Shown here piece after piece: positions 12,212 to 28,473 of a DNA stretch of 64,000 bases. A program made the translations under genes and the position numbers. Under the pieces are notes generated by a model. The model ran no database searches. It saw only the letters and a list, made by a program, of their open reading frames with translations, and had not been told where the DNA came from. Positions within the stretch are counted from its first letter, which is position 1. The number at the start of each line of letters is the position of its first letter. The DNA comes from Dehalococcoidia bacterium (GTDB lineage Bacteria; Chloroflexota; Dehalococcoidia; Dehalococcoidales; Fen-1064), in NCBI GenBank assembly GCA_011170375.1, contig DUEV01000009.1:1694-65693 (forward strand), read 5' to 3'.

Positions 12212-12415
12212 AATCACCTCCCGTGCTGCTAAATTGTCTGTTTGTGTCCCGGTCGAACTATGGGATGTATTGTATCTCATTCTATTAGGTCAAACAATGC
12301 TGTCCGGGCTGGGGAAACGGTATCGCCTCAGCAGGTAGGTGTCGCCTGAGGTCGGTGCTGCAAGTTAGGGGCTGAATCTACAGCCTGCCAGTCCCCGATT
12401 TGCTGCCGTACCGCA

Positions 12416-12444
12416 TTGCCCTTTTCAGGGTCGGCTGGTATAAT
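12416..12444 (+). promoter_or_regulatory. sigma70-like promoter upstream of tRNA-Asn (-35 TTGCCC, 17 nt spacer, extended -10 TGGTATAAT)
   Basis: TTGCCC-N17-TATAAT with a TGn extension, about 50 nt upstream of the tRNA 5' end. Confidence 0.45.
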
Positions 12445-12497: not shown

Positions 12498-12572
12498 TCC
12501 CTGGTAGCTCAATGGTAGAGCGGGCGGCTGTTAACCGCTAGGTTGTAGGTTCGAGTCCTACCCGGGGAGCCA
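12498..12572 (+). tRNA. tRNA-Asn (anticodon GTT), CCA encoded
   Basis: A manual cloverleaf fold gives a 75-nt tRNA:
- Acceptor stem TCCCTGG/CCGGGGA.
- D stem GCTC/GAGC.
- Anticodon stem GGCGG/CCGCT with loop CTGTTAA.
- T arm GTAGG-TTCGAGT-CCTAC.
- Discriminator G followed by CCA. Confidence 0.9.
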
Positions 12573-12774
12573 GCTATTTTCACCCATTTTGGCTAGTGAC
12601 TTCCGGTTGTAGGATTGAGTCACATTAACACGTATTTCTTCAAGTCTTTACACTCATGTGCTCATTCTGATGTTCGTTCACTCGCTACTCCCTGAATAAT
12701 AACGGCCTAAACGAACCCTTGACACTGACAGTGGTAGATGCCATCATTTGAACACTGAGAGGGGGACTATTCCG

Positions 12775-13455
12775 ATGCCGACATGGAATGAGCTATTTAC
12801 TGATGAGCTATATGTGAACAGAATCCCTGAATCAGAAGTGAATCACTTTGTCGATGTGTTGGAAATGCTCTTCTCAGAGCGTCCGTTACGTCTCTGGGAT
12901 GTGTGCTGCGGAGGCGGGCGCCATACCATTGCCATGGCACAGCGTGGCCACAAGGTTTATGCCAGTGATAATGCTCCAAACGCCATCCGTCTCACCCAGG
13001 AATGGATATCTTCGCTCAATCTGGAAGTATACCTGGAGCTAGCCGACATGACTGTCTGCCCCTGGCCAGAGATGGGCTTTCACGGTGCTATTTCTTGGGA
13101 TTCGCTGTATCACAATACTCTGGACAATATGAAAAAGGCAGTCAGTGAAATTCACCGTCATCTCCTCCCCGGAGGGCTCTTCATGTGCACGCTTATGTCT
13201 ACGAAATCAGACAGCTTCGTTTGGGGTTGTGGACAACAAGTTGAACCTCGTACGTTTATCCTTGAAGACTCTGCTGATGCTGGGGTACCTCATCACTTCT
13301 GCGATGAGAGCGAGGTCAGGGAACTATTTCGGGATTGGGAATACCTGAGTCTGGCCGAGCAGGTCATTACCTATCTTGAACGCGGTAAAAACTTCTTAGA
13401 TTACAATCCCTTCCCCTTCACCAAGTGGGGTGTACTAGTGCGGAAAATATCCTGA
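12775..13455 (+). CDS. class I SAM-dependent methyltransferase
   Basis: Motif I is VCCGGGRH. I placed the start at the ATG (MPTWNELF), which follows a GAGAGGGGG RBS, rather than at the TTG at 12748. Confidence 0.7.
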   Translation: MPTWNELFTDELYVNRIPESEVNHFVDVLEMLFSERPLRLWDVCCGGGRHTIAMAQRGHKVYASDNAPNAIRLTQEWISSLNLEVYLELADMTVCPWPEMGFHGAISWDSLYHNTLDNMKKAVSEIHRHLLPGGLFMCTLMSTKSDSFVWGCGQQVEPRTFILEDSADAGVPHHFCDESEVRELFRDWEYLSLAEQVITYLERGKNFLDYNPFPFTKWGVLVRKIS

Positions 13456-13502
13456 TATCTGTTGCTGTAAAAAATCGCCTAGATACAATAAAAACAGCCT
13501 CC

Positions 13503-14828
13503 TCACCCCAGTTTATCTATCAGTCTGTGCAGGGGAGCGGCAATCTGGTCCTCCTGGACATGTGGCGAGTAACAACTATCAATCTGCACCAGCTTCGCCA
13601 ACGGCATACGTGAGGCAATAGCTACGGCCAGCTTGTCTACTGTCCCCGATACTATTTCCTCGGAGATTATTTGTGCCCCGACGAGCGTTTTCGTCTTGGC
13701 ATCAGCAATAAGCTTGTAGTGGGCCGGCTTGCCATTAAATCTATCCCTGAGTCGGGCTGTATCCACCGAAATGGAGACTGCTTCCAGTCCCTTTTCTTTG
13801 GCCTCTCTCTCGGTAAAACCGACTGTTCCTACTTGGTGGCCGAATATCTTGGTGACGAACGGCATCACCGTTCCTTCATAGGTAAGTTGATTGCCGGAGA
13901 CCGCGTTTCTGCCTGCAATGTACCCAGTTCTGATAGCATTGGCAGCCAGCTGGTGCTGCCTCTTCGAGCCGGTCACGACATCCCAGTTTTCCATGCAGTC
14001 CCCGATGGCATAGATATCAGGGTCGCTGGTCTGCAGGTTCTGGTTAACCACTATGGCGCCTGTTTCACCAATCTCCAGTATGGCTTTTTGGGCCAGTTCC
14101 ACGTTGGGTCTGGTACCAGTGGCAAAAAAGACGAAGTCCGCTTCTACCTCTCTGTCAGAAAGCAAGATGTGCTTTCGGTCTCCTTTGGTGGCCATGCTCT
14201 CTATCCTGGCCGGCAGTACCAGCTCAACTTCGTTCTGCATAAGAACATCTTTGATTCTCTCTGCCATGTCCTCGTCCAGATAGGCACGCATGATTCCCGC
14301 CCTGACAAGCAGGTATACTCTGCTGTAGCCTCTTGCTTTAAGGGCGTCGGCTATTTCCAGCCCGATAGACCCTCCACCGACAATGGCTGCTTCCTTGGAC
14401 CGGGTGATAGCTTCGTCCAGAGCAACGCCGTCTGTCATATCGGTGCTCAGGGAGAATTCGTTTTTATTATCCAGTCCCGGTACAGTAGGAATGACCGGGA
14501 CAGCACCCAGGGCGAGAATCAGCTTATCGTAGCCATACTCCTTGCCATCGGCGATGATGCACTTTTTCTGTCTGTCAATATCGGTGACCCGGGCATTCAG
14601 GTGAACGGTTGCATTTCTCCTCTCCCAGAAGGAGATTTCCCGAAAACCACGAACAAGCTCGTCCCAGGTGGCAACAGTCCTGCCAAGTACCAGAGGCATC
14701 TCGCAGGGAGGGCAGCCCAGGCTGGTCCTTTTGCTGAAGACGTCGATTTGTACCTCGCTATCCAGGCGTCGAACCTGATTTGCGGCTGTTGCGCCGCCAT
14801 CTCCAGTGCCCACGATGCAAACCTTCAT
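13503..14828 (-). CDS. FAD-dependent pyridine nucleotide-disulfide oxidoreductase (CoA-disulfide reductase / NADH oxidase family)
   Basis: An N-terminal GxGxxG (IVGTGDGGATAA) and a second dinucleotide fold (IVGGGSIGLE). The redox cysteine region is SLGCPPCEMP. Length is 441 aa. Confidence 0.8.
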   Translation of the reverse strand: MKVCIVGTGDGGATAANQVRRLDSEVQIDVFSKRTSLGCPPCEMPLVLGRTVATWDELVRGFREISFWERRNATVHLNARVTDIDRQKKCIIADGKEYGYDKLILALGAVPVIPTVPGLDNKNEFSLSTDMTDGVALDEAITRSKEAAIVGGGSIGLEIADALKARGYSRVYLLVRAGIMRAYLDEDMAERIKDVLMQNEVELVLPARIESMATKGDRKHILLSDREVEADFVFFATGTRPNVELAQKAILEIGETGAIVVNQNLQTSDPDIYAIGDCMENWDVVTGSKRQHQLAANAIRTGYIAGRNAVSGNQLTYEGTVMPFVTKIFGHQVGTVGFTEREAKEKGLEAVSISVDTARLRDRFNGKPAHYKLIADAKTKTLVGAQIISEEIVSGTVDKLAVAIASRMPLAKLVQIDSCYSPHVQEDQIAAPLHRLIDKLG

Positions 14829-14857
14829 TTTTTGCCTCCAGTCTGTAATCTACCGGT

Positions 14858-15169
14858 CTAAATACTATTGAACCACCTTTCTCGCCACTTCTTCATGTAC
14901 TCTTCCTCAGGATAGGTCCTAGCTATGTCTTCCTCGGTGAAGCTGTACTTGTAGTCACCGCAGTAACTCAATAGCAGTTTGTATGCCTCGTTTAATTTCT
15001 TCATCATCGAATCATCTTCGGCACCGTCACTGCCGTGCTTATCAGGGTGGTGGCGATGAGACAGCTTTCGATAGGCGCTTTTAATCTCCTTCATTGTTGC
15101 TGTCTCGCCCAGCCCGAGTAGCCTTCGTGCCTCATCTATGTCATTGAAGTTGACCACTTTCCCTATCAC
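14858..15169 (-). CDS. J-domain (DnaJ-like) protein
   Basis: 103 aa with KSAYRKLSHRHHPDKH, which contains the HPD motif. Confidence 0.75.
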   Translation of the reverse strand: MIGKVVNFNDIDEARRLLGLGETATMKEIKSAYRKLSHRHHPDKHGSDGAEDDSMMKKLNEAYKLLLSYCGDYKYSFTEEDIARTYPEEEYMKKWRERWFNSI

Positions 15170-15180
15170 ACCATAGATAA

Positions 15181-15498
15181 TTAGAGTAATGCCTTGATTT
15201 TCGGTTGAATCATGCTTTCTGGTACTGCACCCAGGATACCATCGACTTGCTGACCGTCTTTAAATAAGAGCAACAGTGGTATACTCATTACCCGATATTT
15301 CTGGGCCATCTCCGGGTTTTCATCTACATTGAGCTTGCAGAATTTGACCCTGTTAGCGTATTCTTCTGATAACTTCTCGGTCACCGGCGCAATGATGCGG
15401 CACGGCCCACACCAGGGTGCCCAGAAATCGACCACTACAGGTATATCACTTTTGATGACTTCGTTTTCGAAGCTCTGGTCATTTATTTCAGTTACCAT
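15181..15498 (-). CDS. thioredoxin
   Basis: WCGPC active site in a length typical of thioredoxin. I placed the start at MVTEIND, which follows an AAGGAGGTG RBS. Confidence 0.85.
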   Translation of the reverse strand: MVTEINDQSFENEVIKSDIPVVVDFWAPWCGPCRIIAPVTEKLSEEYANRVKFCKLNVDENPEMAQKYRVMSIPLLLLFKDGQQVDGILGAVPESMIQPKIKALL

Positions 15499-15520
15499 CG
15501 TCACCTCCTTTAGATTAATA

Positions 15521-15850
15521 CTATTCTTTGGCTGCCAGGTCCTTTTGCCTGAGCTTTTCAATTCGTTTAATTAAGTCGTCTGCCGTTTGCTTCAGCGAAC
15601 CAACCTCGGATGCTAGCTCTGCCTCCGAGACGGGGCGGCTCTCTACAATGGCTTCTTGCGGGCAGGCTTCGAGACAGAGGCGGCACTGGTTGCACCTGGC
15701 CTGGTTTATTTCAGCCGTACTGGTGATAATTGTAATTGCTTGCCGGGGACAGCTTTCGACACACAGCCCACAGCCAAGACATAGACTTTTCTTTATCCTT
15801 AGTATCGTTCCACTTCTCGGTCTAACATTCTCATTCATAGCAGTGTCCAC
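15521..15850 (-). CDS. 2x[4Fe-4S] ferredoxin-domain protein with C-terminal coiled-coil tail
   Basis: Two cluster motifs, CLGCGLCVESCP and CNQCRLCLEACP. The C-terminal about 35 aa form a heptad-like tail (SLKQTADDLIKRIEKLRQK). Confidence 0.8.
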   Translation of the reverse strand: MDTAMNENVRPRSGTILRIKKSLCLGCGLCVESCPRQAITIITSTAEINQARCNQCRLCLEACPQEAIVESRPVSEAELASEVGSLKQTADDLIKRIEKLRQKDLAAKE

Positions 15851-15853
15851 TAT

Positions 15854-16573
15854 TCATAACCCGGCAGCAGCCGTCGTCCCTTTCCCAGCAATCATTATCG
15901 TAAATCCAGCATCAGGGAAATAGCCTTCCCGGGACTCTTCCATATACTGCACCTCTCCCGGACTCTGGAAGAGGGTCGAGACAGTCATCTCGTTCACAAA
16001 ACCTGCCTGAGCCATGAGTCTTACAACCTCATCGTGTCCATAGAACGTGGCGTACTTGTAGAAACGATGGCCTTCTGCCTTCTTCGCTTGGTAAAACTGG
16101 CCCCAGGGACTTTCCGCCAGAACCAGCCCCAGTACTATCTTGCCTCCCGGCCTCAGGATGCGGTTCGCTTCCTTCAGAACATCCAGCGGCGAATCAAGAA
16201 AACACAGGGTTACAATTAAGAAGACCGTACCGAACGATTCTTCATCAAACAGTTTCTGTTCCCCTTCGCCCAGCAGGGTATTTATTCCTCTCTTCATTGC
16301 TATCTCAGTAAGCCTGGCTGACGGGTCAACCCCCGTCTCTATACCAAGTGCCTGGGCGAAGCGACCACTCCCCACACCTATTTCAAGCCAGGGCTTCGGC
16401 AGCGATGGTAATATTTCTTCAAACGCACGTACCTCAATAGGGAAGATGAGGCTTCCTTCTCTGTCGAACCAGGCATCATATTCCTGGGCCAGGTCGTCGA
16501 AGGGAGAAGTGAGGTCTTTTTGGGATTCCATCCCTGCTAGTGGTTGTGGAGCTCTATATTTGTCTGATGACAT
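15854..16573 (-). CDS. class I SAM-dependent methyltransferase
   Basis: Motif I is LEIGVGSGRF, and the post-I and motif II regions also fit. Length is 239 aa. Confidence 0.7.
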   Translation of the reverse strand: MSSDKYRAPQPLAGMESQKDLTSPFDDLAQEYDAWFDREGSLIFPIEVRAFEEILPSLPKPWLEIGVGSGRFAQALGIETGVDPSARLTEIAMKRGINTLLGEGEQKLFDEESFGTVFLIVTLCFLDSPLDVLKEANRILRPGGKIVLGLVLAESPWGQFYQAKKAEGHRFYKYATFYGHDEVVRLMAQAGFVNEMTVSTLFQSPGEVQYMEESREGYFPDAGFTIMIAGKGTTAAAGL

Positions 16574-16603
16574 CCTCGCTCCTTAAGGATATGCTCGATT
16601 TCG

Positions 16604-16954
16604 TTAACTTGATGAGTACTTCATTCCACTAATACTTTCGGACGTCGCGCTACTCAGCAAAGCTCTCAGTGAACTTCGCTCTTGAAAGCCAAGGAGCCTC
16701 TTTATCGGTTTTGAATTATGGAAGAGAAGGATGGTCGGTACAGCAATGACGTGATATCTTTCGGCTATCTCATAGCTCTCTTCCACGTCCAGCCTGACGA
16801 ATTTGACGACCCCGTGATACTCTCTGGCTAACTGGTCAGCGACAAGGCATGTAGCGAAGCAGGGCTGGCACCACTCGGTAGTGAAGCAGGCGAACACAGG
16901 CACTTCACATCCCAGCACTTCTTTTTCGAAATCTATTCCGGTAATTTCAATCAT
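16604..16954 (-). CDS. thioredoxin-like protein (WCQPC)
   Basis: 116 aa with a thioredoxin-fold pattern and a CxxC motif, WCQPC. Confidence 0.7.
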   Translation of the reverse strand: MIEITGIDFEKEVLGCEVPVFACFTTEWCQPCFATCLVADQLAREYHGVVKFVRLDVEESYEIAERYHVIAVPTILLFHNSKPIKRLLGFQERSSLRALLSSATSESISGMKYSSS

Positions 16955-17022
16955 CGTGGTAAATTTCTTCCGGTAATTCGAACCTCATAGCCTCAGATAG
17001 AGGTATTGTATTATTGTCATCC

Positions 17023-17472
17023 TCAGTATTTGCGGTACGCCTTTTTCCAGGGCTCTCGCTTCATTGCGATGCAGTCTCTTATGGCTGCTCTGAGGGTATT
17101 TGCCGCCAGTAGTGCGCAGTGCTCACTTTCCTGGGGAAGTCCGTCCAAGGCATCTAAAATGTCCTGTTGACTAATCCTCTGAGCTTCATCAATGCTTTTC
17201 CCTTTAATTATCTCGGTGATCATGCTGCCAGAGGCTATAGTTGTTCCACAGCCGTCAGTCATGAAGCTGGTATTGATAATGGTGTCGCCATTTACCTTCA
17301 GCCATATCTCCATGGTGTCGCCGCAGGGTCCCGTCACGCTGGCAAAGCCATCAGCATCTTGTATAATGCCTGCATTCCTCGGATTCATGGCGTGGTCAAT
17401 CACCGTTTCGGAATATAACTTACGGGCATCTGCAGATAATAATTCCTGAAGCTCATCAAATTCGGTAGACAT
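17023..17472 (-). CDS. IscU/NifU N-terminal-type Fe-S cluster scaffold protein
   Basis: Three conserved Cys contexts: GPCGD, DGCGT and HCALLA. Length is 149 aa. Confidence 0.8.
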   Translation of the reverse strand: MSTEFDELQELLSADARKLYSETVIDHAMNPRNAGIIQDADGFASVTGPCGDTMEIWLKVNGDTIINTSFMTDGCGTTIASGSMITEIIKGKSIDEAQRISQQDILDALDGLPQESEHCALLAANTLRAAIRDCIAMKREPWKKAYRKY

Positions 17473-17487
17473 TCTTTCGTCTCCTGC

Positions 17488-18492
17488 TCAGTTGCCCCCA
17501 GCCGTCAACGCCTGGACTAGGGATTCACCTAGCTTGGTAACTATTTCGCTGTCATATCGTTCAATACCACCCTCGTCACAGAGCCTGGCCAGTTCAGGAT
17601 CTATCGGCAACTGGCCCAGGAGGGGGGCGTTCACAGCACGAGCCATTTCCTCACCGCGGCTCTGGCCAAAAATCTCAATCTTCTTATCTATTTCAGGTAC
17701 ATACAGGTAACTCATATTCTCGACCACACCCAGAACACGCTTTTCCATTTTCCGGGCCATGTTCACTGCCTTACGGACAATCATTTCGACCAGGTCCTGA
17801 GGGGTAAAAACGACGACTACCCCCGAAATAGGAAATGATTGCATTAGCGTGAGTGGTGCGTCTGCGGTGCCAGGAGGCAGGTCAACAATCAGATAATCAA
17901 GCTTACCCCACAGCACCTCTTCACCAAACTGTTTGATGGCATTGCCAATAAGAGGGCCGCGCCAGATGACGGCGTCATCCTCGCTGGGCAGCAGAAGATT
18001 GATAGACATTACTTCGATACCTGAGGTCGAAAGTACCGGTAGTATCCCGCTCTCATTGCCACTTGGTCGGTCGTTGAGGCCGAACATCTTGGGTATACTC
18101 GGGCCGGTGATATCGGCATCCAGAATGCCTACCTCATAGCCATTACGATTTAGAGCCACCGCAAATAAGCTCGATACCAGGGACTTACCCACTCCTCCCT
18201 TACCACTCATCACGGCAATCATATGGTCAATGTCATTCAGCTCCGTTGCTTTGGCATCGGTGTATTCTGTCTTCACATCATTGACTTCGGGCAGTTGATT
18301 TATTGCTTCTTTTACTTTGGTACTTAGCCAGTCCTGTGCGCCTGGTATCAATCCGGTTGATGACAGGGTAACGTTTACTTCGTTATCGGAAATGGTTATC
18401 TCTCGCACCAAGTTCATCCCGACGATGCTGCGTTGTACGGCAGGCACCAGCACGGTTTCTAATTTCTCTTTAACCTGCTCCTCAGTTATCAT
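17488..18492 (-). CDS. Mrp/NBP35/ApbC family Fe-S cluster carrier ATPase with N-terminal DUF59-like domain
   Basis: Deviant Walker A SGKGGVGKS, plus the family pattern DLPPGT and a ParA-like core. Confidence 0.85.
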   Translation of the reverse strand: MITEEQVKEKLETVLVPAVQRSIVGMNLVREITISDNEVNVTLSSTGLIPGAQDWLSTKVKEAINQLPEVNDVKTEYTDAKATELNDIDHMIAVMSGKGGVGKSLVSSLFAVALNRNGYEVGILDADITGPSIPKMFGLNDRPSGNESGILPVLSTSGIEVMSINLLLPSEDDAVIWRGPLIGNAIKQFGEEVLWGKLDYLIVDLPPGTADAPLTLMQSFPISGVVVVFTPQDLVEMIVRKAVNMARKMEKRVLGVVENMSYLYVPEIDKKIEIFGQSRGEEMARAVNAPLLGQLPIDPELARLCDEGGIERYDSEIVTKLGESLVQALTAGGN

Positions 18493-18515
18493 AGTCTATA
18501 CTCCAATCTCATCCC

Positions 18516-18854
18516 CTAGTGGTCACAAATGTTATCTCCTGTAGCCAGCTGGCCGTCGAGATGGTTCAGGACCGCCTTCTCCGGGTCGCTTTCCAACGCA
18601 CCAAGAATGACTCCGATGCGATTTTGCTGGAAAAGGTTTTGTGCCCTGGAGCCCATCCCACCGGCAATCACAAAGGAGACGCCCTGCTCTGCCAGCCACT
18701 CTGGAAGAAGACCGGGCTGGTGTCCTGGTGACGGAACAAGCTCCTTCTTTAGAATCTCTCGTGTTTGCTCGTCGATGTCGAAAAGGGCAAAATGCTCGCA
18801 ATGACCGAAGTGCGGCGAGACTGCCCCATTGCTTACTGGTACTGCATACCTCAT
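18516..18854 (-). CDS. NifB/NifX-family (dinitrogenase FeMo-cofactor-binding domain) protein
   Basis: 112 aa. The segments HFGHCEHF.LFD and GVSFVIAGGMG match the Nitro_FeMo-Co domain pattern. Confidence 0.7.
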   Translation of the reverse strand: MRYAVPVSNGAVSPHFGHCEHFALFDIDEQTREILKKELVPSPGHQPGLLPEWLAEQGVSFVIAGGMGSRAQNLFQQNRIGVILGALESDPEKAVLNHLDGQLATGDNICDH

Positions 18855-18866
18855 AGCAACCTCCCT

Positions 18867-19160
18867 TTACTCATTTGTTTTCAGTTCGTATTCTGGCTTA
18901 CCTTCGTCGAAAGATATCCCAACAGTCACTTGTTTCCCCTCAGCAAGGTACCTTTCCGATTCGTCCCGCAGCCTACGTGACTCAGGAGATTTTAGAAATG
19001 AGACCAGCATTTCAAACCTCTCGGTCATCTCTTTATCATCTCCTACCGCTCTCAGCAGCGACAGAAGGCAGTTATTTAGCTCCTGCTCAGCCAGGCACTT
19101 GATGCACTTTCCGGGCACCTCACTGGTCGAATACCTGGGGTCGAGGTTAATTGTGTCCAT
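18867..19160 (-). CDS. hypothetical protein (97 aa, CxxC..C)
   Basis: ORF within the operon. I placed the start at MDTINLD, which follows an AGGAGGA RBS. The longer ORF-track version would overlap the upstream gene. I recognise no family. Confidence 0.45.
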   Translation of the reverse strand: MDTINLDPRYSTSEVPGKCIKCLAEQELNNCLLSLLRAVGDDKEMTERFEMLVSFLKSPESRRLRDESERYLAEGKQVTVGISFDEGKPEYELKTNE

Positions 19161-19173
19161 TTGACCTATCCTC

Positions 19174-19410
19174 CTAGTACCGTCGGCAAGTGTCCCCGGT
19201 GGAGCAGGGTGGCGCATCGCAACGCTCGTTCCGGCCACAGCAGGTAGTACCCGCAGCCTGACTACCTGACTTGATCATGTAGGACGCAGACACCAGCTTC
19301 TCAAGATTACCGCTACCACAATCAGGGCAACGAAGCGCTTGCTCACTACTGCGGACAAACACCTCCGAGACCTGGCTACAATCCAGACACTTAAACTCGT
19401 AAATTGGCAC
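19174..19410 (-). CDS. FmdB-family zinc-ribbon protein
   Basis: MPIYEFKCLDC....CPDCGS is the characteristic CxxC..CxxC N-terminus of this family. Confidence 0.75.
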   Translation of the reverse strand: MPIYEFKCLDCSQVSEVFVRSSEQALRCPDCGSGNLEKLVSASYMIKSGSQAAGTTCCGRNERCDAPPCSTGDTCRRY

Positions 19411-19472
19411 CTTCTAGCTTGCCTCCTTCCAGATGATTTTAGGTGAGACACACTGCCTCATGAACTGACACT

Positions 19473-19664
19473 TCAGGTGGGACCGCTCGGAGTACATGAA
19501 TTACCAGAAATTGTGAAAAAGGGAGAGAAGATACGGTGCGAATCCTCTGCCCCACACGCGGGACACTTTGCTTCCCGGTTGCTATCGCTCATGCTACGCC
19601 GTAGCTCGAAACGCTCACCACATTTAGTGCACTCGTATTCATAGATTGGCATGTCGTATGTCAC
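19473..19664 (-). CDS. FmdB-family zinc-ribbon protein
   Basis: MPIYEYECTKCG....CPACGA. It shows a 4-nt overlap (ATGA) with the upstream gene. The true start could instead be the internal MPIYEY. Confidence 0.7.
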   Translation of the reverse strand: MTYDMPIYEYECTKCGERFELRRSMSDSNREAKCPACGAEDSHRIFSPFFTISGNSCTPSGPT

Positions 19665-20533
19665 CCTTTGCTATCATTCTCAAGCATCGCCGAGAGAATG
19701 CTCCAGGTCCTTTCTATCTCCTCGGAGACTCTACCATCGGAATGCTCCACTACCGGTATTCCTTTGACAATCGACTGGGTTACAATATTATCAAAGGAAA
19801 TCTTCCCGGCTATTTTGACTCCTTGGTCCAAACAGCTACTCTCTATATGCTGTGTGTTTTCCTCATTCAGGTCGCATTTGTTTATGCAGACTAGGGGCAC
19901 TACGCCGAAGTGTCGGCAGACGCCAAGCACCCTCTCTAAATCGTGCATTCCAGAGAGAGTGGGCTCGGTCACCAGTAGAGCCAGATTGACTCCGGATAGC
20001 GACGAAATCACCGGACAGCCGATGCCTGGCGGACCGTCACTGATAATATAGTCCAAATTCCTCTCATTGGCAATTTGTTTGGCCTGCTGCCGGACTGCCG
20101 CTACCAGTTTTCCCGAGTTTTCTTGGGCGATTCCCAGACGGGCGTGAACCAGCGGTCCGTAACTGGTATCGGAGATGAACCAGTATCCAGACATATTCTC
20201 CCGCATAGTTATGGCTTCAACCGGGCATATGTGGGAGCAGAAGCCACAGCCCTCACAGGATACCGGATCAACCCTGAAATCCTTGATGGCATTAAAACGG
20301 CAAAGCTCCTGGCACAGACCACACTCAGTACAGCTGTCTTCATCTATACGAGCTACCTGGCCACTCCAGAACTCGCTTTTTTGTTGCTCTGAAGGGCTGA
20401 GTAGCAAATGGAGGTCGGCGGCATCCACATCGCAGTCGGCAAGCACCTTCCTTTTTGCCAAGGCAGCAAAGGAACCGACAATGGTGGTCTTTCCGGTACC
20501 TCCCTTACCGCTTAATACTATGATTTCTTTCAT
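19661..20533 (-). CDS. MinD/ParA-superfamily P-loop ATPase with inserted 2x[4Fe-4S] ferredoxin domain (COG1149-type)
   Basis: Walker A SGKGGTGKTT, and cluster motifs CTECGLCQELC and CEGCGFCSHICP. Confidence 0.85.
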   Translation of the reverse strand: MKEIIVLSGKGGTGKTTIVGSFAALAKRKVLADCDVDAADLHLLLSPSEQQKSEFWSGQVARIDEDSCTECGLCQELCRFNAIKDFRVDPVSCEGCGFCSHICPVEAITMRENMSGYWFISDTSYGPLVHARLGIAQENSGKLVAAVRQQAKQIANERNLDYIISDGPPGIGCPVISSLSGVNLALLVTEPTLSGMHDLERVLGVCRHFGVVPLVCINKCDLNEENTQHIESSCLDQGVKIAGKISFDNIVTQSIVKGIPVVEHSDGRVSEEIERTWSILSAMLENDSKG

Positions 20534-21372
20534 CCGTCAGTACTCTTCACTCTATTGTAAAGCTTCAGAAAGCTCTCCTTCCACTGCGGGAGCCCCTCGA
20601 CCAGAGGAATGCCCCGTGAATACAGGCGGGCAATCTCAATGTCCAAGGGAATAGTTAGTAGTACGGGAATATTCTCTTTCTTACAATACTCCTCTACTCT
20701 GCTGTCACCGACACCAGCACGATTGAGCACAACGCCGCAGGGGATGTTAAGTTCCCTCACCGTTTTGACGGCAAGGGCTAGGTCATTAAGCCCGAAGGGT
20801 GTTGGCTCCGTTACCAGCAAGCAAAAATCACTATCCTTAATGGCTTCCACTACTGGACAGGATGTCCCCGGCGGAACGTCGACGATAGCGGTGTCATCGT
20901 TGTTGGTATATTCCTTTACCTTCCTGATAACAGGTGGTGCCATCGCTTCGCCTACAGTGAGTTTACCCTGGACATAGCCCACACCATCCGCATGTCCCCA
21001 TTCAACAATCCCCGTTTCTCGACTCTCTTCGGAGATAGCATCTTCTGGACAGAGGTAGCTGCAGGCGCCACAGCCATGACATAGCTGGGGGAAGGTCAGC
21101 ACATGATTGCCCAGGACGGCAATGGCATTAAAGGCACATACCTGTGCACACTTACCACAGTAGGTACACTTGCTTTCGTCTACGCTGGGAACCAGTATTG
21201 ATACAGCTTCGCTGTCGACGATTTCGGGCTTTAGAAACACGTGGTCATTCGGCTCCTCCACGTCGCAGTCGAGAAGCTGCACCCTGTCAATATTCCTCAA
21301 AGAAAGGGCAAGGCTGGTGGCGACCAGGGTCTTACCCGTCCCTCCTTTGCCACTGGCAACTGATATAATCAT
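20530..21372 (-). CDS. MinD/ParA-superfamily P-loop ATPase with inserted 2x[4Fe-4S] ferredoxin domain (COG1149-type), paralog
   Basis: Walker A SGKGGTGKTL, and cluster motifs CTYCGKCAQVC and CHGCGACSYLCP. It overlaps the downstream paralog by 4 nt. Confidence 0.85.
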   Translation of the reverse strand: MIISVASGKGGTGKTLVATSLALSLRNIDRVQLLDCDVEEPNDHVFLKPEIVDSEAVSILVPSVDESKCTYCGKCAQVCAFNAIAVLGNHVLTFPQLCHGCGACSYLCPEDAISEESRETGIVEWGHADGVGYVQGKLTVGEAMAPPVIRKVKEYTNNDDTAIVDVPPGTSCPVVEAIKDSDFCLLVTEPTPFGLNDLALAVKTVRELNIPCGVVLNRAGVGDSRVEEYCKKENIPVLLTIPLDIEIARLYSRGIPLVEGLPQWKESFLKLYNRVKSTDG

Positions 21373-21409
21373 TCTAGCCTCTTAGACTAGTCCCGCTCCG
21401 GTGATGCAT

Positions 21410-22042
21410 CTATTTTTTCTTTTTTTCCAGCTCATCAATCCGGCGCTGGATTTCCGATAGCTGCTGAGCCATTGCTTGGGATTGGGCCTTAAGGGCGTCA
21501 AGTTCCTGCTCTGGGGACTGTGGCTGAGGTGCTGGGCCTGTAGGTGGACTCATGCCACCCCCCATCCCCATGCCTCTACCCATGCCACGGCCCATACCCA
21601 TACCACGGCCCATACCCATACCACGGCCCATGCCCCTGCCTCTGCCCATACCGGAGCCACCTCCCATCCCAGCCCCGCCACCCATACCAAAGTGGTCGGG
21701 CACGTTTGCCTGAGCGCTTGCCTGGAACTTGCCTGACTGGTAGCCCTCGATGACGTCCTTTATTTTACCAGAAATACCGGTCAATATTTGGATGCCGGCC
21801 GAGGACAACACCTGATAGGCGTTAGGCCCGCAGTTTCCGGTCAGGACAGCCTGCACACCCTTGTCGGCAATTGTCTGAGCAGCGGAGATACCGGCTCCAC
21901 CGGCTGCCATAGCACTGGAGTTGTCCATCGCCTCGAACTCCATTGTTGCCGGGTTGGCAATGATGAAATACTGGCAGCGTCCGAAACGGGGGTCAACCTC
22001 AGCATCTAATCCGGGACCGGTGGCTGAAATAGCAATCTTCAT
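21410..22042 (-). CDS. NifB/NifX-family domain protein fused to a Gly/Met/Arg-rich repeat and C-terminal coiled coil
   Basis: The N-terminal about 115 aa match the Nitro_FeMo-Co pattern (DPRFGRCQYF, GVQAVLTGNCGPNA). This is followed by GMGGGAGMGGGSGMGRGRGMGRGMGMGRGMGMGRGMGRGMGMGGGM and then the tail ELDALKAQSQAMAQQLSEIQRRIDELEKKKK. Confidence 0.8.
   Translation of the reverse strand: MKIAISATGPGLDAEVDPRFGRCQYFIIANPATMEFEAMDNSSAMAAGGAGISAAQTIADKGVQAVLTGNCGPNAYQVLSSAGIQILTGISGKIKDVIEGYQSGKFQASAQANVPDHFGMGGGAGMGGGSGMGRGRGMGRGMGMGRGMGMGRGMGRGMGMGGGMSPPTGPAPQPQSPEQELDALKAQSQAMAQQLSEIQRRIDELEKKKK
21585..21638. repeat. 18-nt tandem repeat (2 perfect units plus 1 degenerate) inside the CDS, encoding GMGRGM repeats
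   Basis: The unit CCACGGCCCATACCCATA occurs at 21585..21602 and 21603..21620, with a degenerate third unit at 21621..21638. Confidence 0.85.
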
Positions 22043-22045
22043 AGC

Positions 22046-22348
22046 TTATCCTTGCTCCTTCCCACTCTCTATTTCCTGTATCCTTGCCTCTATCTCTTTC
22101 AGGTCATCACTCATAGATTGGGACAGACCCCTAAGGTAATCGACCTCGTCTTGTCGGGATATCACTGGCGAGAATGGATAAGCTCCGCGATAAGGCACAC
22201 CCCACGGCACAGCGTATGGGTAGGGCATATATCGTGCCCTCCAGGCGTATCCCGGCCATACCGGCCGTATTGAGGTGGCGCAGAATCCTCTGCCGCCACC
22301 TGTCATCGGGCCTATCCCACGAGGACCGGTACCATCGAATCCTGGCAT
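22046..22348 (-). CDS. DUF5320 domain-containing protein
   Basis: The N-terminus MPGFDGTGPRGIGPMTGGGRGFC matches the DUF5320 signature. The C-terminal tail is a coiled coil, EVDYLRGLSQSMSDDLKEIEARIQEIE. Confidence 0.7.
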   Translation of the reverse strand: MPGFDGTGPRGIGPMTGGGRGFCATSIRPVWPGYAWRARYMPYPYAVPWGVPYRGAYPFSPVISRQDEVDYLRGLSQSMSDDLKEIEARIQEIESGKEQG

Positions 22349-22367
22349 GGTTGCCTCCTTTATAAGA

Positions 22368-22718
22368 TTAATCTTCCTTTTGTTCGCTCTCCAGACCCCT
22401 CATTCTGGACTCGATTTGCTCTAGCTGCTCCTTTACTGCCTCTGCCTGCTCCCTGAGGTAATCAAGCTCTTCTTCCCTGGTCATTTGGGGGGTGAAGGGT
22501 GCATATCCCGGGTAGGCAGGTTCTTGGCCGTAGAAGGGTGTCTGGTACGGCCATGGTTGCTCAGCACCAGGGCCACTGAAAAAATACCCGCAACGTGGTA
22601 GCCCTCCTCTACCTATCCCAACATAAGGCCAGGGAGGAGAAGCGCCTCGAAAGCCGAAGCCCATGCCTCTACCAAATCCACGGCCAAAGCCTCTTCCTCG
22701 TCCAAATCCATTAGGCAT
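22368..22718 (-). CDS. DUF5320-like protein with RG/FG-rich N-terminus
   Basis: The N-terminus is GRGRGFGRGFGRGMGFGFRG. The C-terminal tail is EELDYLREQAEAVKEQLEQIESRMRGLE. Confidence 0.6.
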   Translation of the reverse strand: MPNGFGRGRGFGRGFGRGMGFGFRGASPPWPYVGIGRGGLPRCGYFFSGPGAEQPWPYQTPFYGQEPAYPGYAPFTPQMTREEELDYLREQAEAVKEQLEQIESRMRGLESEQKED

Positions 22719-22745
22719 TTTTGACCTCCTCGAATGAACTTTTTT

Positions 22746-22955
22746 CTACCACCGTGGGTAGTAGTGGGGTGCGTACCAGCGCCTGCCGAAACCACGGCCT
22801 CTGCCACGGCCCCAGCCTCTCCAGCCAAAGCTGAACCACCGTCTTCGTGGCATCAGGCTGGCAAAACCGGGACGGCCGAAACCGGCGCAGTAGCCGGCAC
22901 CTCTTCCAGTCATTGGTCCCATTCCTCTGGGTCCAGTTCCATCTCCGAATGGCAT
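22746..22955 (-). CDS. DUF5320 domain-containing protein (short form)
   Basis: MPFGDGTGPRGMGPMTGRGAGYCAG signature followed by an RG-rich tail. It has no coiled coil. Confidence 0.65.
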   Translation of the reverse strand: MPFGDGTGPRGMGPMTGRGAGYCAGFGRPGFASLMPRRRWFSFGWRGWGRGRGRGFGRRWYAPHYYPRW

Positions 22956-23093
22956 TTACCTCACCTCCTCTTCACGCGATTTTTTTCATTTCATCAACAC
23001 TGACTGTCAAGATGCTCCTAATCGAAGCTGGTGTTTTCCTTGATTTTTGCCTCTGCCCAAAAGGCTGCTCTGACTCACGCTACAGTCAAACCC

Positions 23094-23567
23094 TTACCAG
23101 CCACGTCCTCCTCGATGGCGTCTCTTCCAACCACCTCTGCCCCGGCCCATCCCTGCGGGCAAGAGAGGCATTATACTCGGTGTTTCACACTCGGGGCAGG
23201 ACTCGGGTGGGGCAGATATCATGGCTTCAAAAGGAACATCCCATTCATGACCGTTAAGGCACTGGAACCGACTCCAGGCCATCTCAAAATTGCCACCCTC
23301 AATTCTCATTGCTTTTCCATTAAGGAGAGCGTTGGCTATTTTTTGCCGCGCGGAGGTCAAGACTCTTTGAAAGGTTGGGCGGGAGATATTCATTCTTTCC
23401 GCACCCTTCTCCTGTTCCAGACCTTCCAGGTCCTTGAGCCGTATTGCCTCAGCCTCCTCTACCGAGAGAACAATTTCGTCAAGGACTCTCAGTGGCACAC
23501 CGGTTGGCTTGAAATATGTTGTTTGTGGCAGGAATGCGACTCGGCGGCATTTTTGCGGTCTTGGCAT
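23094..23567 (-). CDS. DUF134 (UPF0251) family putative DNA-binding protein with C-terminal zinc ribbon and GR-rich tail
   Basis: The N-terminus MPRPQKCRRV....F.P.G is the DUF134 hallmark. An HTH-like segment (ISRPTFQRVLTSARQKIA) follows, then C..H...CPEC, and the tail GMGRGRGGWKRRHRGGRGW. Confidence 0.75.
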   Translation of the reverse strand: MPRPQKCRRVAFLPQTTYFKPTGVPLRVLDEIVLSVEEAEAIRLKDLEGLEQEKGAERMNISRPTFQRVLTSARQKIANALLNGKAMRIEGGNFEMAWSRFQCLNGHEWDVPFEAMISAPPESCPECETPSIMPLLPAGMGRGRGGWKRRHRGGRGW

Positions 23568-23592
23568 ATCTGAATCATTTCCTCGTTTATAT

Positions 23593-23606
23593 TGAGCATA
23601 TGCTCA
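23593..23606. promoter_or_regulatory. perfect 14-bp palindrome TGAGCATATGCTCA, candidate operator of the DUF134-led operon
   Basis: It lies 26 nt upstream of the DUF134 ATG, immediately downstream of the predicted -10 element at 23613..23618. Confidence 0.4.
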
Positions 23607-23612
23607 TAATGT

Positions 23613-23641
23613 ATATTAACATATGTCTATGTGTTAGTCAA
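23613..23641 (-). promoter_or_regulatory. sigma70-like promoter of the 19-gene operon (-35 TTGACT, 17 nt spacer, -10 TAATAT)
   Basis: The minus strand reads TTGACT-N17-TAATAT. A GAGGA RBS precedes the DUF134 ATG. Confidence 0.5.
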
Positions 23642-23713
23642 TATTGTCGAGGTAATGTCCGGGTGAGTTTGAATTACGCCGGATGCGGTGTATTACCTGA
23701 GAACACGAATAAG

Positions 23714-23758
23714 TTGTTAACCGTTAGGTTGTAGGTTGGAGTCCTACCCGGGGAGCCA
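23714..23758 (+). pseudogene. displaced 3' half of tRNA-Asn (anticodon loop to CCA), direct repeat of 12528..12572
   Basis: 42 of 45 nt are identical to the 3' part of the intact tRNA-Asn. There is no 5' half upstream. The roughly 95 nt downstream (to about 23860) also resemble the sequence downstream of the intact tRNA (12573..12670). Confidence 0.8.
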
Positions 23759-23964
23759 ATTATTTCTACCTAATTTAAGCTAATAACCTCGGGTGGCAGG
23801 TTTGGACCGCACCCAGGGGCATTTCTTCTGAGTCATTACAATCATGTCGTCATCCCGGTGTTTGTCTGATATAGAAATGTTCCCTTTATTAATTCATTTG
23901 ACGCTGAATGTGCAGAGTATGTATATTTGTAGGAATAGTTGCTCTCCGCACTGAAGGAGGCGTA

Positions 23965-25458
23965 ATGCAAAAGACAATAATGATAATTGGGGCTGGCTTA
24001 GCTGGCTTATCAGTCGGGTGCTACGGCCAGATGAATGATTACAACACCCGTATCTTCGAAATGCACGACAAGCCCAGGGGACTATGCACCTCCTGGAAAC
24101 GTAAGGGTTATACCTTTGATGGGTGCATCCATTGGCTGATGGGTTCCGGGTCTGGCAACTTCCACCGCTTATACGAGGAACTGGGGGCAGTACAGGGTCG
24201 ACGTATGATCAATCACGATGAGTGGATGCGCTTTGAAGGGCTCGAAGGAGAGACATTCATCGTATACACAAACCTCGAGCGCCTGGAACAGCATATGAAG
24301 GAACTGTCCCCTTCGGACGCCAGTGTAATCGAAGAGCTCTGTAATACTGCACGTTCCTTAACACCCCGTGATTTGCCGGTAGAAAAGCCCGCAGAGCTGA
24401 TGGGACTGTCTGACTTACTCAAGGTGATTAAGGCGATACCGATAATGCGAGTCATACGTCAGTACAGCAAGATATCAAATCAGGACTATGCGTCACGCTT
24501 CAGCAATCCTTTCTTGCGTGAGGTATTCCCATTGATATTAGATGATATGCCCAACTTGTCATTGATGGCCGTACTGTGGTTACTAACAAATTCACACATA
24601 CATAACGCAGGTTGGCCTGTCGGTGGCTCACTAGAATTTGCCCGATCCATAGAAAAGCGTTATCTTAGTCTGGGCGGTGAAGTGCAATACCATGCACCTG
24701 TTGAGAAAATCCTGGTCGAAAACGACCGTGCTATAGGTGTGCGCCTTGCTGACGGTACCGAGCATCACGCTGACCTGATTGTCTCCACTGCTGATGGTCA
24801 CACCACCATCTTTGACATGCTGGATGGCAAGTATGTCAATGACGAGATACGCTCCTACTATAATGAGTGGCCTATATACCAACCGATGATCCAGATCTCA
24901 CTAGGGGTAGCGCGCGACTTCTCGAATGAACCCCGTTCGGTGAAAATTCTTCTCGAGGAGCCGATCAATGTCGGCAACGAGGTTCGCAGCTGGCTACATT
25001 TCCATCACTACTGCCATGACCCTGCTATGGCCCCACCTGGTAAGTCTGTGGTCGTGTTTGAATTCCTGAATAATGACTATGCGTATTGGAAAGAGCTCTA
25101 TGAGGATCGTGAGCGCTACAAGGCAGAAAAAGAGCGTCTTGCTAATGCAGTTATTGACCAGCTGGAACGGTGTTTCCCCGGTGTCAAAGATGAAATAGAG
25201 GTCGTGGATGTAGCTACCCCGGTAACATACGAGCGCTACACCGGCACTTGGCAGGGTTCCTACATGGGCTGGGCTGATACTACCGGAAAGTTCGGTAAGT
25301 CCATGAGTAGAACACTTCCGGGACTGGGTAGTTTCTCTATGGCCGGACAATGGGTCTACTTTGGAGGCGGTGTACCCGGTGCAGTGATGTCGGGTCGGCA
25401 CTTGATACAAATTATCTGTAAAGAAGATAAGAAGAAGTTTGTAACCAGCGCTCCATGA
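23965..25458 (+). CDS. NAD(P)/FAD-dependent oxidoreductase, phytoene desaturase (CrtI)-like family
   Basis: The N-terminal dinucleotide motif is IIGAGLAGLSVG. The product is about 500 aa with a family-like C-terminus. I placed the start at MQKTIMIIGAG, which follows a GAAGGAGG RBS. Confidence 0.7.
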   Translation: MQKTIMIIGAGLAGLSVGCYGQMNDYNTRIFEMHDKPRGLCTSWKRKGYTFDGCIHWLMGSGSGNFHRLYEELGAVQGRRMINHDEWMRFEGLEGETFIVYTNLERLEQHMKELSPSDASVIEELCNTARSLTPRDLPVEKPAELMGLSDLLKVIKAIPIMRVIRQYSKISNQDYASRFSNPFLREVFPLILDDMPNLSLMAVLWLLTNSHIHNAGWPVGGSLEFARSIEKRYLSLGGEVQYHAPVEKILVENDRAIGVRLADGTEHHADLIVSTADGHTTIFDMLDGKYVNDEIRSYYNEWPIYQPMIQISLGVARDFSNEPRSVKILLEEPINVGNEVRSWLHFHHYCHDPAMAPPGKSVVVFEFLNNDYAYWKELYEDRERYKAEKERLANAVIDQLERCFPGVKDEIEVVDVATPVTYERYTGTWQGSYMGWADTTGKFGKSMSRTLPGLGSFSMAGQWVYFGGGVPGAVMSGRHLIQIICKEDKKKFVTSAP

Positions 25459-25476
25459 GGGTATTACTCCCCCTCC

Positions 25477-25531
25477 CCCCACCCCACCAGCGCAAATGCT
25501 CTGGAGAAATGGCCGGAATGTGACCAATAAC
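25477..25531. repeat. ~55-nt intergenic repeat, copy 1 (core CCCCACCCCACC-N-CGCAAATGCTCTGG)
   Basis: Aligns with 27111..27162 and 28397..28450 in the same orientation. Confidence 0.7.
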
Positions 25532-25579
25532 TCCTGGATATGCTTAACGCAAGCACTCGAGATTTGGAGAGGTCGGCCT

Positions 25580-27019
25580 TCAAGCTGCGCGTGTCTCTAG
25601 CGCATCGAGGACGTCGGCTGCAAAACGGGTGAGCCGGAAGCCACCCTGTCCTTGTTCGTCCATGATATCGAAACCACGGCGAACGATTACAACATTCCTT
25701 GAGGGAATAACCATGGAGTATTGGCCGCGAGCACCGGCTGCGGCGTAAACGCCCTCGGGCAAACCCTGCTTGGGGCCAAAGAGCCAGAATTGAGCGCCGT
25801 AGCCACGTCCGTCTGGCATTTGAGGCTGGTCGGGTGCCGGTGTAGCGACATATTCAGACCAACCTTCAGGAAGAATCCGTTCTCCGTTCCAGACCCCATC
25901 GTTGAGATAAAGAAGGCCAAACCGGGCAAAATCCCGGGCTGTGCTCCAGGCCTGCCCGGACATCAGGAAGTCACCGTTCCAATCCGTTTCAGTGTTTGTT
26001 CGGGTCATCCCAGTCTTCCAGAAGATTTCCTGAAAAGGAAATAGGTGAAAACGGGCATCATTTCTCATGGCAGTGCGTACGGCACGGACCGCCAGAATTG
26101 TGTCTGAGCCGGCATAGACCCATCGCTTACCCGGCATGCAGTCAAAGATATTGCGGGCAGAACGTTCAGCGGCAGCCACACCCCCAAAATACAGTTCTTG
26201 TTGAGGATTTCCAGCTCGTTCGGTATACAGGCCACTGCACATGTGTAACAGGTCGTTTATCGTGATTTGTCCTCGGGGGTCCCCAGGCGTGTGCCATTCA
26301 GGGAGGGGTGCCTTTTCATAGATATCAATTAGTCCCTGCTTCACAGCTGCACCAACAACCGATACGGCAAAGCCTTTGGCCGCTGAATTGGTTCGATGGG
26401 GTGTGTGCATGTCGTAACCACGATTATTGTCGTAGTGCTCACTTACTATCTTACCGTCCTTAACGATAACTACTCCCCACGTAATTCCACCATAGACCTC
26501 TCCGTCAAACGCGTTTTTCACAACACGATCCAGTGCATCAGCCTGTGTGGAGGGGAGCGTGACTGTCGCATCCTTATCTCCCTGAGGCCATGGTTCGTCA
26601 TCGGTGTTGGGTATAATAATATCTTCCGATAATCGTGGTAGGTATTTCACTGCATCCAGCGTGGCGCCAATGGGAAGCTGAGTTGAACCCAGACCGGGTC
26701 GCCAGGCAGCGATACGCGGTGGCATGTCCGGAAGATAGGTCACCGCCACAGTCTTGTTTCTTTCATCTATCTCAGCGGGCATTTCCGGGAAGAGGCTTTC
26801 CCATACGGGAGAAACGCCGGTAAACACATCGGCTTCAATCCTTTCTGGCGTGTGGCCGGCAGTAAAAATACCACTGCAATAATACATGGCCTTGTAGGCT
26901 GCGGCCATGGCCCTGACATGACGTCTCGTGTTCATTCCGGGACGTCTTCTTGGCTCTCGCCGAGCAACTGATGGCGATTCAACTGTGTTTATGTTCTCTC
27001 TGTCGCTTTCTGTCATCAT
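25580..27019 (-). CDS. serine hydrolase, beta-lactamase family
   Basis: SxxK motif (NSAAKGF) in a product of about 480 aa. I moved the start to the ATG that follows a GGGAGGAG RBS (ORF-track start 27034). Confidence 0.65.
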   Translation of the reverse strand: MMTESDRENINTVESPSVARREPRRRPGMNTRRHVRAMAAAYKAMYYCSGIFTAGHTPERIEADVFTGVSPVWESLFPEMPAEIDERNKTVAVTYLPDMPPRIAAWRPGLGSTQLPIGATLDAVKYLPRLSEDIIIPNTDDEPWPQGDKDATVTLPSTQADALDRVVKNAFDGEVYGGITWGVVIVKDGKIVSEHYDNNRGYDMHTPHRTNSAAKGFAVSVVGAAVKQGLIDIYEKAPLPEWHTPGDPRGQITINDLLHMCSGLYTERAGNPQQELYFGGVAAAERSARNIFDCMPGKRWVYAGSDTILAVRAVRTAMRNDARFHLFPFQEIFWKTGMTRTNTETDWNGDFLMSGQAWSTARDFARFGLLYLNDGVWNGERILPEGWSEYVATPAPDQPQMPDGRGYGAQFWLFGPKQGLPEGVYAAAGARGQYSMVIPSRNVVIVRRGFDIMDEQGQGGFRLTRFAADVLDALETRAA

Positions 27020-27110
27020 CTCCTCCCGTATCACCTGTTCAGGACCGTGGAATGGATAATCTGGCCCATATTATACCATTTCCTTCTCTTATAGAAAGCC
27101 CTTACTTTCC

Positions 27111-27162
27111 CTCGCCCCGCCGGCGCAAATGCTTTGGGAAATAGGCGTGTCTGGTCGATAAC
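27111..27162. repeat. ~55-nt intergenic repeat, copy 2
   Basis: CTCGCCCCGCCGGCGCAAATGCTTTGGGAAATAGGCG... aligns with copies 1 and 3. Confidence 0.7.
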
Positions 27163-27209
27163 CCGTTAATGTTAACCTGGAGACCGGTTATGGGCGCTTG
27201 TGCTCTCCC

Positions 27210-28283: not shown

Positions 28284-28396
28284 GGCATTGCACCCCGTTC
28301 AGTAGCAGTATGTAACCAGAGCTAATGGTAGGGCTTGAAGGATATGTTGTCAAGGAGATTCCCGACTTCTAAACTCGGTAGTTTTCAGTGTCATTC

Positions 28397-28450: not shown

Positions 28451-28473
28451 GTAAACAGGCTATCGAGAAATAG

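Follow-up and report, generated by a model that had tools for sequence, protein, structure and literature searches.

The anticodon loop of tRNA genes is a classic crossover site that is used by many tyrosine integrases, and in 2002 Williams is said to have set out, in Nucleic Acids Research, a sublocation scheme for tRNA-integrated islands that includes crossover in the anticodon loop. Here we discuss a possible event of this type in a Dehalococcoidia bacterium (GenBank assembly GCA_011170375.1). The window, by which we mean the whole 64,000-nucleotide stretch of contig DUEV01000009.1 that we analyzed, contains an intact tRNA-Asn gene, a displaced copy of the 3' half of that gene, and 11.2 kb between the two. 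There are several described systems with which to compare it. In Dehalococcoides, tandem islands at ssrA are bounded by repeats of the gene's 3' end, some of these islands lack an integration module, and they have been proposed to be cis-mobilizable elements (CIMEs) or to be "now fixed" (PMC3146451). CIMEs and accretion at attachment (att) sites have been reviewed (PMC5704250). In the genomic islands of Prochlorococcus, partial tRNAs have been interpreted as relics of older integrations, including those of tycheposons, which pushed older material outward (10.1101/2020.12.28.424599).

Our preferred reading, to which we give about an even chance, is that the tRNA-Asn gene and its 3' copy are the fixed, integrase-less scar of an integration in the anticodon loop, and that the element has decayed or was mobilized in trans. 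This would be a known kind of event; the unusual detail is that a tail beyond the tRNA is repeated along with the att-like sequence, as a single module. The features at issue are:

12416-12444, + strand: promoter-like site for tRNA-Asn (TTGCCC-17-TATAAT, with a TG before it; consensus scan), about 50 nt upstream of the gene
12498-12572, + strand: intact tRNA-Asn(GTT) with encoded CCA (ARAGORN; Rfam RF00005, 70 bits)
12529-12678, + strand: module copy 1 (C1), with the spacer at 12573-12632 and the repeat block at 12633-12678 (from alignments); our nhmmer model of the repeat matches 12623-12687 (E = 1.6e-8)
23715-23866, + strand: module copy 2 (C2), with the tRNA part at 23715-23758, the spacer at 23759-23819, and the repeat block at 23820-23866; the same model matches 23810-23873 (E = 4.4e-9)

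The displaced copy corresponds to tRNA-Asn positions 33-76 (23715-23758, + strand) and lies on the same strand as the intact gene. The homology begins at T33, in the anticodon loop, and its right limit is the CCA. Between these limits, 42 of 44 nucleotides are identical, or 42 of 45 if we count an extra first base that was included in the first-pass annotation of this DNA. That annotation had placed the intact gene at 12498-12572, which ARAGORN and Rfam confirm, and had described a 45-nt direct repeat with no 5' half, which is borne out with a start at 23715. One of the two mismatches (C42>T) leaves a G-U pair with G28 possible, and the second (C56>G) alters an invariant nucleotide of the T loop, so the fragment is not a functional tRNA sequence. 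ARAGORN finds no 5' half beside the displaced copy, the 100 nt to its left align locally with tRNA positions 1-33 no better than chance (p = 0.45), and a consensus scan finds no equivalent of the tRNA promoter upstream of it. Upstream of the intact gene, we found nothing comparable to a remnant of a 5' half.

The similarity between the two copies continues beyond the CCA. The first-pass annotation had noticed roughly 95 nt of it, at about 65% identity; it is real and slightly longer, as it runs collinearly for about 106 nt and then ends sharply at +106. Over the whole tail, 71 of 108 aligned columns are identical (66%), with 36/61 in the spacer (the first 60 nt) and 35/47 in the terminal block (the last 46 nt). 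Both parts are significant in shuffle tests: the terminal block has a local score of 38, as compared to a maximum of 30 in 2000 shuffles, and the 60-nt spacer alone scores above all 3000 dinucleotide shuffles. Each copy is a 150-nt module that consists of tRNA positions 33-76, a 60-nt spacer, and a 46-nt repeat block. The repeat block is a member of an intergenic repeat family (described below), and this accounts for the sharp boundary at +106, as the DNA that is specific to each unit starts there. The earlier remark that this was more than a normal att core was right about the extra homology; it is not an over-long att core, and is instead a discrete module that ends in a repeat. We also considered whether the tail might be a structured RNA. 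It matches no Rfam family and its folding is no better than that of shuffled sequences (z = -1.2 and +0.2), so we rejected this idea; covariation in the tail could draw on n = 2 sequences.

The tRNA part and the tail have diverged unequally (42/44 or 95% vs. 71/108 or 66%, Fisher p = 3e-5). This excludes a recent duplication in place. Because the tRNA part was conserved while the tail drifted, it appears that the two modules diverged long ago within working tRNA loci and were joined later.

A third copy of the module, which we call R, is present in all four of the public runs that contain this sequence (three are labelled as marine-sediment metagenomes and one as a seawater metagenome). In each run, R is on a contig of 1.5-2.3 kb, in which the 3' end of tRNA-Asn is followed by a tail that aligns without gaps to window positions 12576-12678, with 13 differences in 103 nt (87% identical to C1). 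The spacer of R is C1-like, while its repeat block resembles that of C2 and the consensus of the relatives (3/35 differences to 23831-23865). After the repeat, R continues with ...TGGAAAAATTTCACTGTTTTTTCTCCATGT. In every run, the depth of R was 1.02-1.11 times the depth of the window's organism (n = 4), and R may be in the same genome as the window or in a sister strain. The sequence beyond R's trailer had no matches in viral contigs.

The repeats that end the modules belong to a clade-wide family of about 50-65 nt, intergenic in all of the copies that we have seen, with a consensus of roughly GCAAACGGTATC-AAATAT(T/C)TATACGCATG(A/G)CTGGATAGACATCCCGATGTTCGT. We built the nhmmer model from the copies that flank the relatives of MTaseA, the methyltransferase gene that follows C1, and this model recovers the terminal blocks of both window copies (E = 1e-8 to 1e-7). 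In all, nhmmer recovers at least 8 copies of the repeat (E = 1e-15 to 1e-7). They are spread over five different contigs or organisms, and copies that share a contig are co-oriented. In related metagenomic contigs, the copies bound single genes, including homologues of the window's methyltransferase and of the oxidoreductase that is the first gene past C2. For example, L111:1-2813 contains, in order, a repeat, a methyltransferase (+), a repeat, a gene of 147 amino acids (-), a repeat, and an ApbA-family (ketopantoate-reductase-like) gene (-), with all of the repeats in the same orientation. In L114-L116, the methyltransferase has a direct repeat on both sides, and in L115 and L116 there is no tRNA-Asn upstream of the repeat. 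In L106, which contains a 73% identical relative of the oxidoreductase, a copy of the repeat lies upstream of the gene in the opposite orientation. The same repeat end leads to at least five different continuations (C1, C2, R, and the second and third copies in L111), and the C1-type continuation is common to the upstream copies in L111 and L114-L116.

Two explanations for the conserved block can be discarded. It is not simply a promoter, because the repeats occur in either orientation relative to the neighboring genes (L106, L111), and it is not an attC-like hairpin, as RNAalifold predicts 0 conserved pairs from 8 copies of the repeat. The core of the repeat had no matches in viral contigs. 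Besides C1 and C2, the only nhmmer match in the window is marginal (E = 0.2). It is the block TTTTTACGCCCATGTCGACATCTCGATGTTTTTTCATTC at 6346-6390 on the - strand, and the first giant kinase/STAND gene has its promoter downstream of this block. Also, a lone 10-mer at 12315-12324 on the + strand, AAACGGTATC, is identical to the 5' end of the relatives' repeat and is 15 nt from the end of synteny with the relative L015, in which homology ends at 12300. This 10-mer has one match in the window, as compared to 0.09 expected, and is weak evidence.

Between the modules and just past C2, the annotated features are:

12775-13455, + strand: MTaseA, a class I S-adenosylmethionine-dependent methyltransferase (Pfam)
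13456-13507: convergent junction of the methyltransferase and the operon (blastn; L111:12-856 matches window 12662-13507)
13503-23567, - strand: iron-sulfur (Fe-S)/redox operon (Pfam)
23568-23714, - strand: promoter region of the operon, which abuts the 5' edge of the tRNA fragment
23641-23613, - strand: promoter-like site of the operon, TTGACT-17-TAATAT (consensus scan)
23965-25458, + strand: CrtI-family FAD (flavin adenine dinucleotide) oxidoreductase, phytoene-desaturase-like, the first gene past C2 (Pfam, NCBIfam)

In order of transcription, the operon first encodes a DUF134 regulator, three DUF5320 proteins, a NifX-like protein, two MinD-ferredoxin ATPases, and an AF_2379-like protein. 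It then encodes another NifX-like protein, Mrp/NBP35, NifU, a thioredoxin, a methyltransferase, a ferredoxin, another thioredoxin, a DnaJ-domain protein, and a pyridine-nucleotide disulfide oxidoreductase. Next to the operon's promoter is an 18-nt stretch (about 23593-23610) that is also present, on both strands, in the DNA upstream of DUF134 in L068. There are also overlapping repeats with a 12/18-nt spacing within two of the operon's genes, at 21537-21694 (a NifX-DUF5320 fusion gene) and at 22660-22703 (a DUF5320 gene). These encode sequences rich in Gly, Met, and Arg and vary in length between conspecific contigs: the product has 204 amino acids in L101 and 210 in the others.

These 11.2 kb form a mosaic, with a methyltransferase unit that looks mobile and an operon that is conserved widely. 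The relatives of the methyltransferase (90% protein identity in L111, 87% in L114 and L115, and 80% in L116) align to the window from inside the C1 block (12662-12670) through the gene, with DNA homology at 12662-13507 for L111 and from 12663 or 12670 to 13445 for L114-L116. We found this unit in at least four different contexts. The core order of the operon, on the other hand, is conserved in about 80 metagenomic loci (62-88% identity for Mrp) with flanks that are always different, and none of the 34 longest of these loci contains an intact tRNA-Asn. In the four runs, the depth of conserved parts of the operon (counted at 90% nucleotide identity or above) reaches 10-30 times that of the organism itself, while the methyltransferase and the oxidoreductase have the same depth as the organism. 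So the operon looks common and conserved, and its two neighbors look accessory.

We also came across two other unusual tRNA-Asn sequences. At L076:990-1035, in a distant relative, there is an independent and decayed 3' fragment of tRNA-Asn that extends from the 3' strand of the anticodon stem to the CCA. It lies 450 nt upstream of a DUF134 operon, on the operon's strand, so that the relative orientation is opposite to that in the window, and it has no homology to the tail. Also, in public runs X2-X4, window positions 12498-12572 match contigs of 435, 2409, and 3059 nt (depth 6-7.5) that contain tRNA-Asn positions 1-34 and 35-76 as two separate pieces. Between G34 and T35 are unknown letters, of less than about 340 nt, that end with ...GAGTCCGCCTGTGGCGGA. 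This may be an intron-like or other small insertion in the anticodon of another organism's tRNA-Asn.

How well does an anticodon-loop scar account for the locus? The displaced copy starts in the anticodon loop, exactly at T33, which points to site-specific recombination there, and the order of intact tRNA, insert, and displaced 3' half is the product that would be expected from such recombination. Only one change in the fragment is of a lethal type (C56>G), which is consistent with displacement a limited time ago. Furthermore, the neighborhood is variable: the methyltransferase unit is found in several contexts, as described above, and relatives do not have a tRNA-Asn beside the flanking genes. 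In L015, whose DUF4405 protein is 82% identical, there is no tRNA-Asn beside this left-flank gene; the relatives of the oxidoreductase that are 70-73% identical have no tRNA upstream of it; and the matches to the oxidoreductase in our genome collection (all at 60% identity or below) show neither synteny nor a tRNA-Asn. In some other contigs from the marine-sediment runs, the match to tRNA-Asn starts at 12528-12532 and is preceded by unrelated sequence, which is weak evidence. The independent, decayed fragment in L076 is another hint of this kind, and the ssrA islands of Dehalococcoides and the partial tRNAs of Prochlorococcus provide precedents. In viral contigs, patterns with the 3' end of tRNA-Asn led only to ordinary phage tRNA arrays.

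Other results weigh against this reading. There is no integrase, transposase, or excisionase, or remnant of one, at 12573-23714, according to Pfam scans of the operon-strand open reading frames of at least 100 amino acids and of the methyltransferase on the + strand; the first-pass annotation had also seen no mobility gene between the repeats. The composition of the segment, which that annotation had proposed as a check, is not foreign: both tetranucleotide usage (z = -1.0 to +0.6 for the distance of windows inside the segment) and GC content (0.49-0.56 inside vs. 0.42-0.59 outside) match the rest of the window. A conserved operon that is shared, at 90% nucleotide identity or above, by many co-occurring genomes is odd cargo for an island. 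Homology to L111 stops at 13507, the convergent junction with the operon, and is followed by other genes. Since this point falls within the putative island, the 11 kb did not move together as a single conserved unit. The similarity of R to C1 stops at the identical +106 boundary and is followed by unrelated sequence. This shows that the tail behaves as a separate unit, which would not be expected from a simple att-core model. Finally, there are conspecific contigs from 10 samples or runs that reach this stretch, and every one of them contains a portion of the occupied arrangement: in L011-L013, the tRNA gene is followed by the methyltransferase and the operon, and in L098-L105, the DUF134 end of the operon adjoins the oxidoreductase. 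None of the conspecific contigs has an empty site or a circular junction. The absence of an empty site is uninformative, because the closest relatives (70-90% amino-acid identity) have already lost synteny on both flanks. Similarly, we did not find a joint between 12531 and 23715 in the Logan contigs, which cannot cross the tRNA: they break inside tRNA-Asn because many genomes share its sequence.

Could the repeats, rather than the tRNA, be what moves? Under this alternative, the module or the 46-nt repeat is the substrate of an integrase-less cassette system at tRNA-Asn, and units that are bounded by repeats are exchanged among relatives by homologous recombination or by a recombinase that is encoded elsewhere. 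C2 would be the boundary of a unit and not the far end of one island. We consider this unlikely, but there is much in the relatives that it would explain, including the 8 or more intergenic copies that are co-oriented in each of five contigs or organisms, the alternation of repeats and genes in L111, the repeat-flanked methyltransferase in the tRNA-free surroundings of L114-L116, and the five or more continuations after one repeat end. Also, to the right of C2 in the window, another repeat of about 55 nt separates single genes. It is less successful with the window itself, which has only two good copies of the repeat, none downstream of the methyltransferase, and none on the left of the operon, and it gives no reason for C2 to start precisely in the anticodon loop. 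The relatives have no tRNA linked to the repeat, and the lack of a conserved hairpin (0 predicted pairs) is unlike the attC sites of integrons. A broader proposal, which we regard as just as speculative, is that tRNA-Asn in the Dehalococcoidales of marine sediments stands at the head of a gene-capture platform, one that lacks its own integrase and whose sites are recombined by a recombinase that is encoded elsewhere. The 150-nt unit and the free-standing 50-65-nt repeats would be double-stranded recombination sites, single genes and even whole operons would be swapped among relatives, and the platform would have given rise to the 11-kb segment, to the oxidoreductase unit, and to R.

We doubt the other two alternatives more. 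The displaced copy might be what is left of a second tRNA-Asn gene with its own tail (about 23682-23866), whose 5' half was removed by a rearrangement that brought in the promoter side of the operon. A conserved tRNA part with a diverged tail is also what we would expect of old paralogues under selection, and R, with its constant depth ratio of 1.02-1.11 in four runs, may be a further tRNA-Asn locus of the same genome. But no trace of the 5' half or of a tRNA promoter is found beside C2, and a random break in a 75-nt gene has only about a 10% chance of falling within the 7-nt anticodon loop, so we think this improbable. Alternatively, DNA from a relative might have been captured by homologous recombination through tRNA-Asn at one end and an illegitimate joint at the other, which is known as homology-facilitated illegitimate recombination. 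tRNA-Asn is nearly identical across the co-occurring genomes (its word depth is in the thousands, as compared to about 10 for the organism), which makes it an ideal anchor of homology, and the inserted DNA has the composition of a relative's. However, this process normally replaces or deletes resident DNA and does not produce a clean direct duplication of the anchor's 3' half, and the precise edge in the anticodon loop would have to be a coincidence. Of the explanations we considered, this seems the most far-fetched.

If the locus is the scar of an anticodon-loop integration, then site-specific recombination in the anticodon loop of tRNA-Asn would have left an attL/attR-type pair, and we infer that an integrase made the joint. 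One of the modules would have come in on DNA from a fairly distant relative and the other would have been resident. Under the classical model, the intact gene would hold the incoming 3' half, while the displaced fragment and the oxidoreductase side would be native; the C1-like spacer of R would also fit with C1 being the clade's own tail. The fragment would have gained only one or two changes after it was displaced. The recombinase would have been either lost or supplied in trans, as for a CIME. What is left today has no recombinase, is native-like in composition, is a mosaic with conserved cargo, and is not arranged otherwise in any conspecific contig, which argues for a fixed scar and not an active island. 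The segment is now a fixed part of a plastic tRNA-Asn neighborhood. Of the three possibilities that the first-pass annotation had raised, an old and immobilized island is the best fit, and recombination with a relative's locus and a truncated duplicate of the tRNA locus are less likely. The boundaries do have an attL/attR-like geometry; the composition is not foreign, and the 11 kb are not a single coherent island.

As for the rest of the window, the genes on the left flank encode a DUF4405 protein, a DUF169 protein, and two giant kinase/STAND proteins. On the right are the CrtI-family oxidoreductase, a beta-lactamase-fold protein, a DUF6815 protein, and a MarR/MMPL pair. Three co-oriented elements of about 60 nt (25472-25533, 27104-27164, and 28391-28453, with the core CCCCACCCCACC.GCGCAAATGCTCTGGGAAA) separate the oxidoreductase, beta-lactamase-fold, DUF6815, and marR genes. 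These elements form a family that is distinct from the tRNA-tail repeat and were found only in this species' contigs. The cumulative GC skew reaches its minimum at about 23000-28000, and gene orientation switches at C2; the minimum may reflect the strand bias of the genes or a replication landmark. The tyrosine recombinases that are nearest to the segment are a XerD equivalog (60179-61102) and an integrase that is associated with a tRNA-Met (63049-63975). The tRNA-Met(CAT) is at 62964-63038, and the divergent integrase is on the opposite strand 11 nt on, with a reading frame that is still open at the window's end. A canonical tRNA-integrated element begins here.

Taken alone, the locus is one more integrase-less tRNA scar, and it would mainly be useful in annotation, as a marker of a plastic region. 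It does illustrate that a core-like operon can sit between att-type repeats. Also, the fact that the tRNA part and the tail have diverged to such different extents argues that the two att copies are of different lineages, and the same argument could be applied to other scars of unknown origin. If the repeats are recombination sites, they would help to explain how streamlined Dehalococcoidia of the sediment exchange genes without obvious mobile-element machinery. Unless it turns out that the repeats act as a recombination system, we consider the significance of the locus to be moderate to low.

How does the locus compare to the known systems? The cassettes of integrons resemble the single genes of the relatives (L111 and L114-L116), which are separated by short, co-oriented repeats. 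Unlike integron cassettes, these repeats do not form hairpins and the genes are in either orientation. The window does not contain an integron integrase; the protein encoded at 60179-61102 passes the cut-off for the XerD equivalog, and with the integron-integrase model its score is 117 bits, below that model's cut-off of 265. As in Prochlorococcus, a partial tRNA lies near a full tRNA in a variable region, but here there is one relic, there are no fragments of integrases, and what is bracketed is mostly a conserved operon. Compared to typical tRNA-integrated islands, the locus lacks an integrase, a compositional signature, and an observed empty site, its homology runs 106 nt past the tRNA, and its cargo is a conserved operon. 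Yet it shares with them an intact tRNA at one end and, at the other end, a direct 3' repeat that runs from the anticodon loop through the CCA. The ssrA islands of Dehalococcoides differ in that the gene is ssrA instead of tRNA-Asn and the crossover is in the T loop instead of the anticodon loop, and we saw no neighboring island with an integration module within our window. Nevertheless, in those islands and in CIMEs, as in our bacterium, att-type repeats of the 3' end of an RNA gene flank DNA without genes for integration or transfer, and the hosts of the ssrA islands belong to the same class, the Dehalococcoidia.

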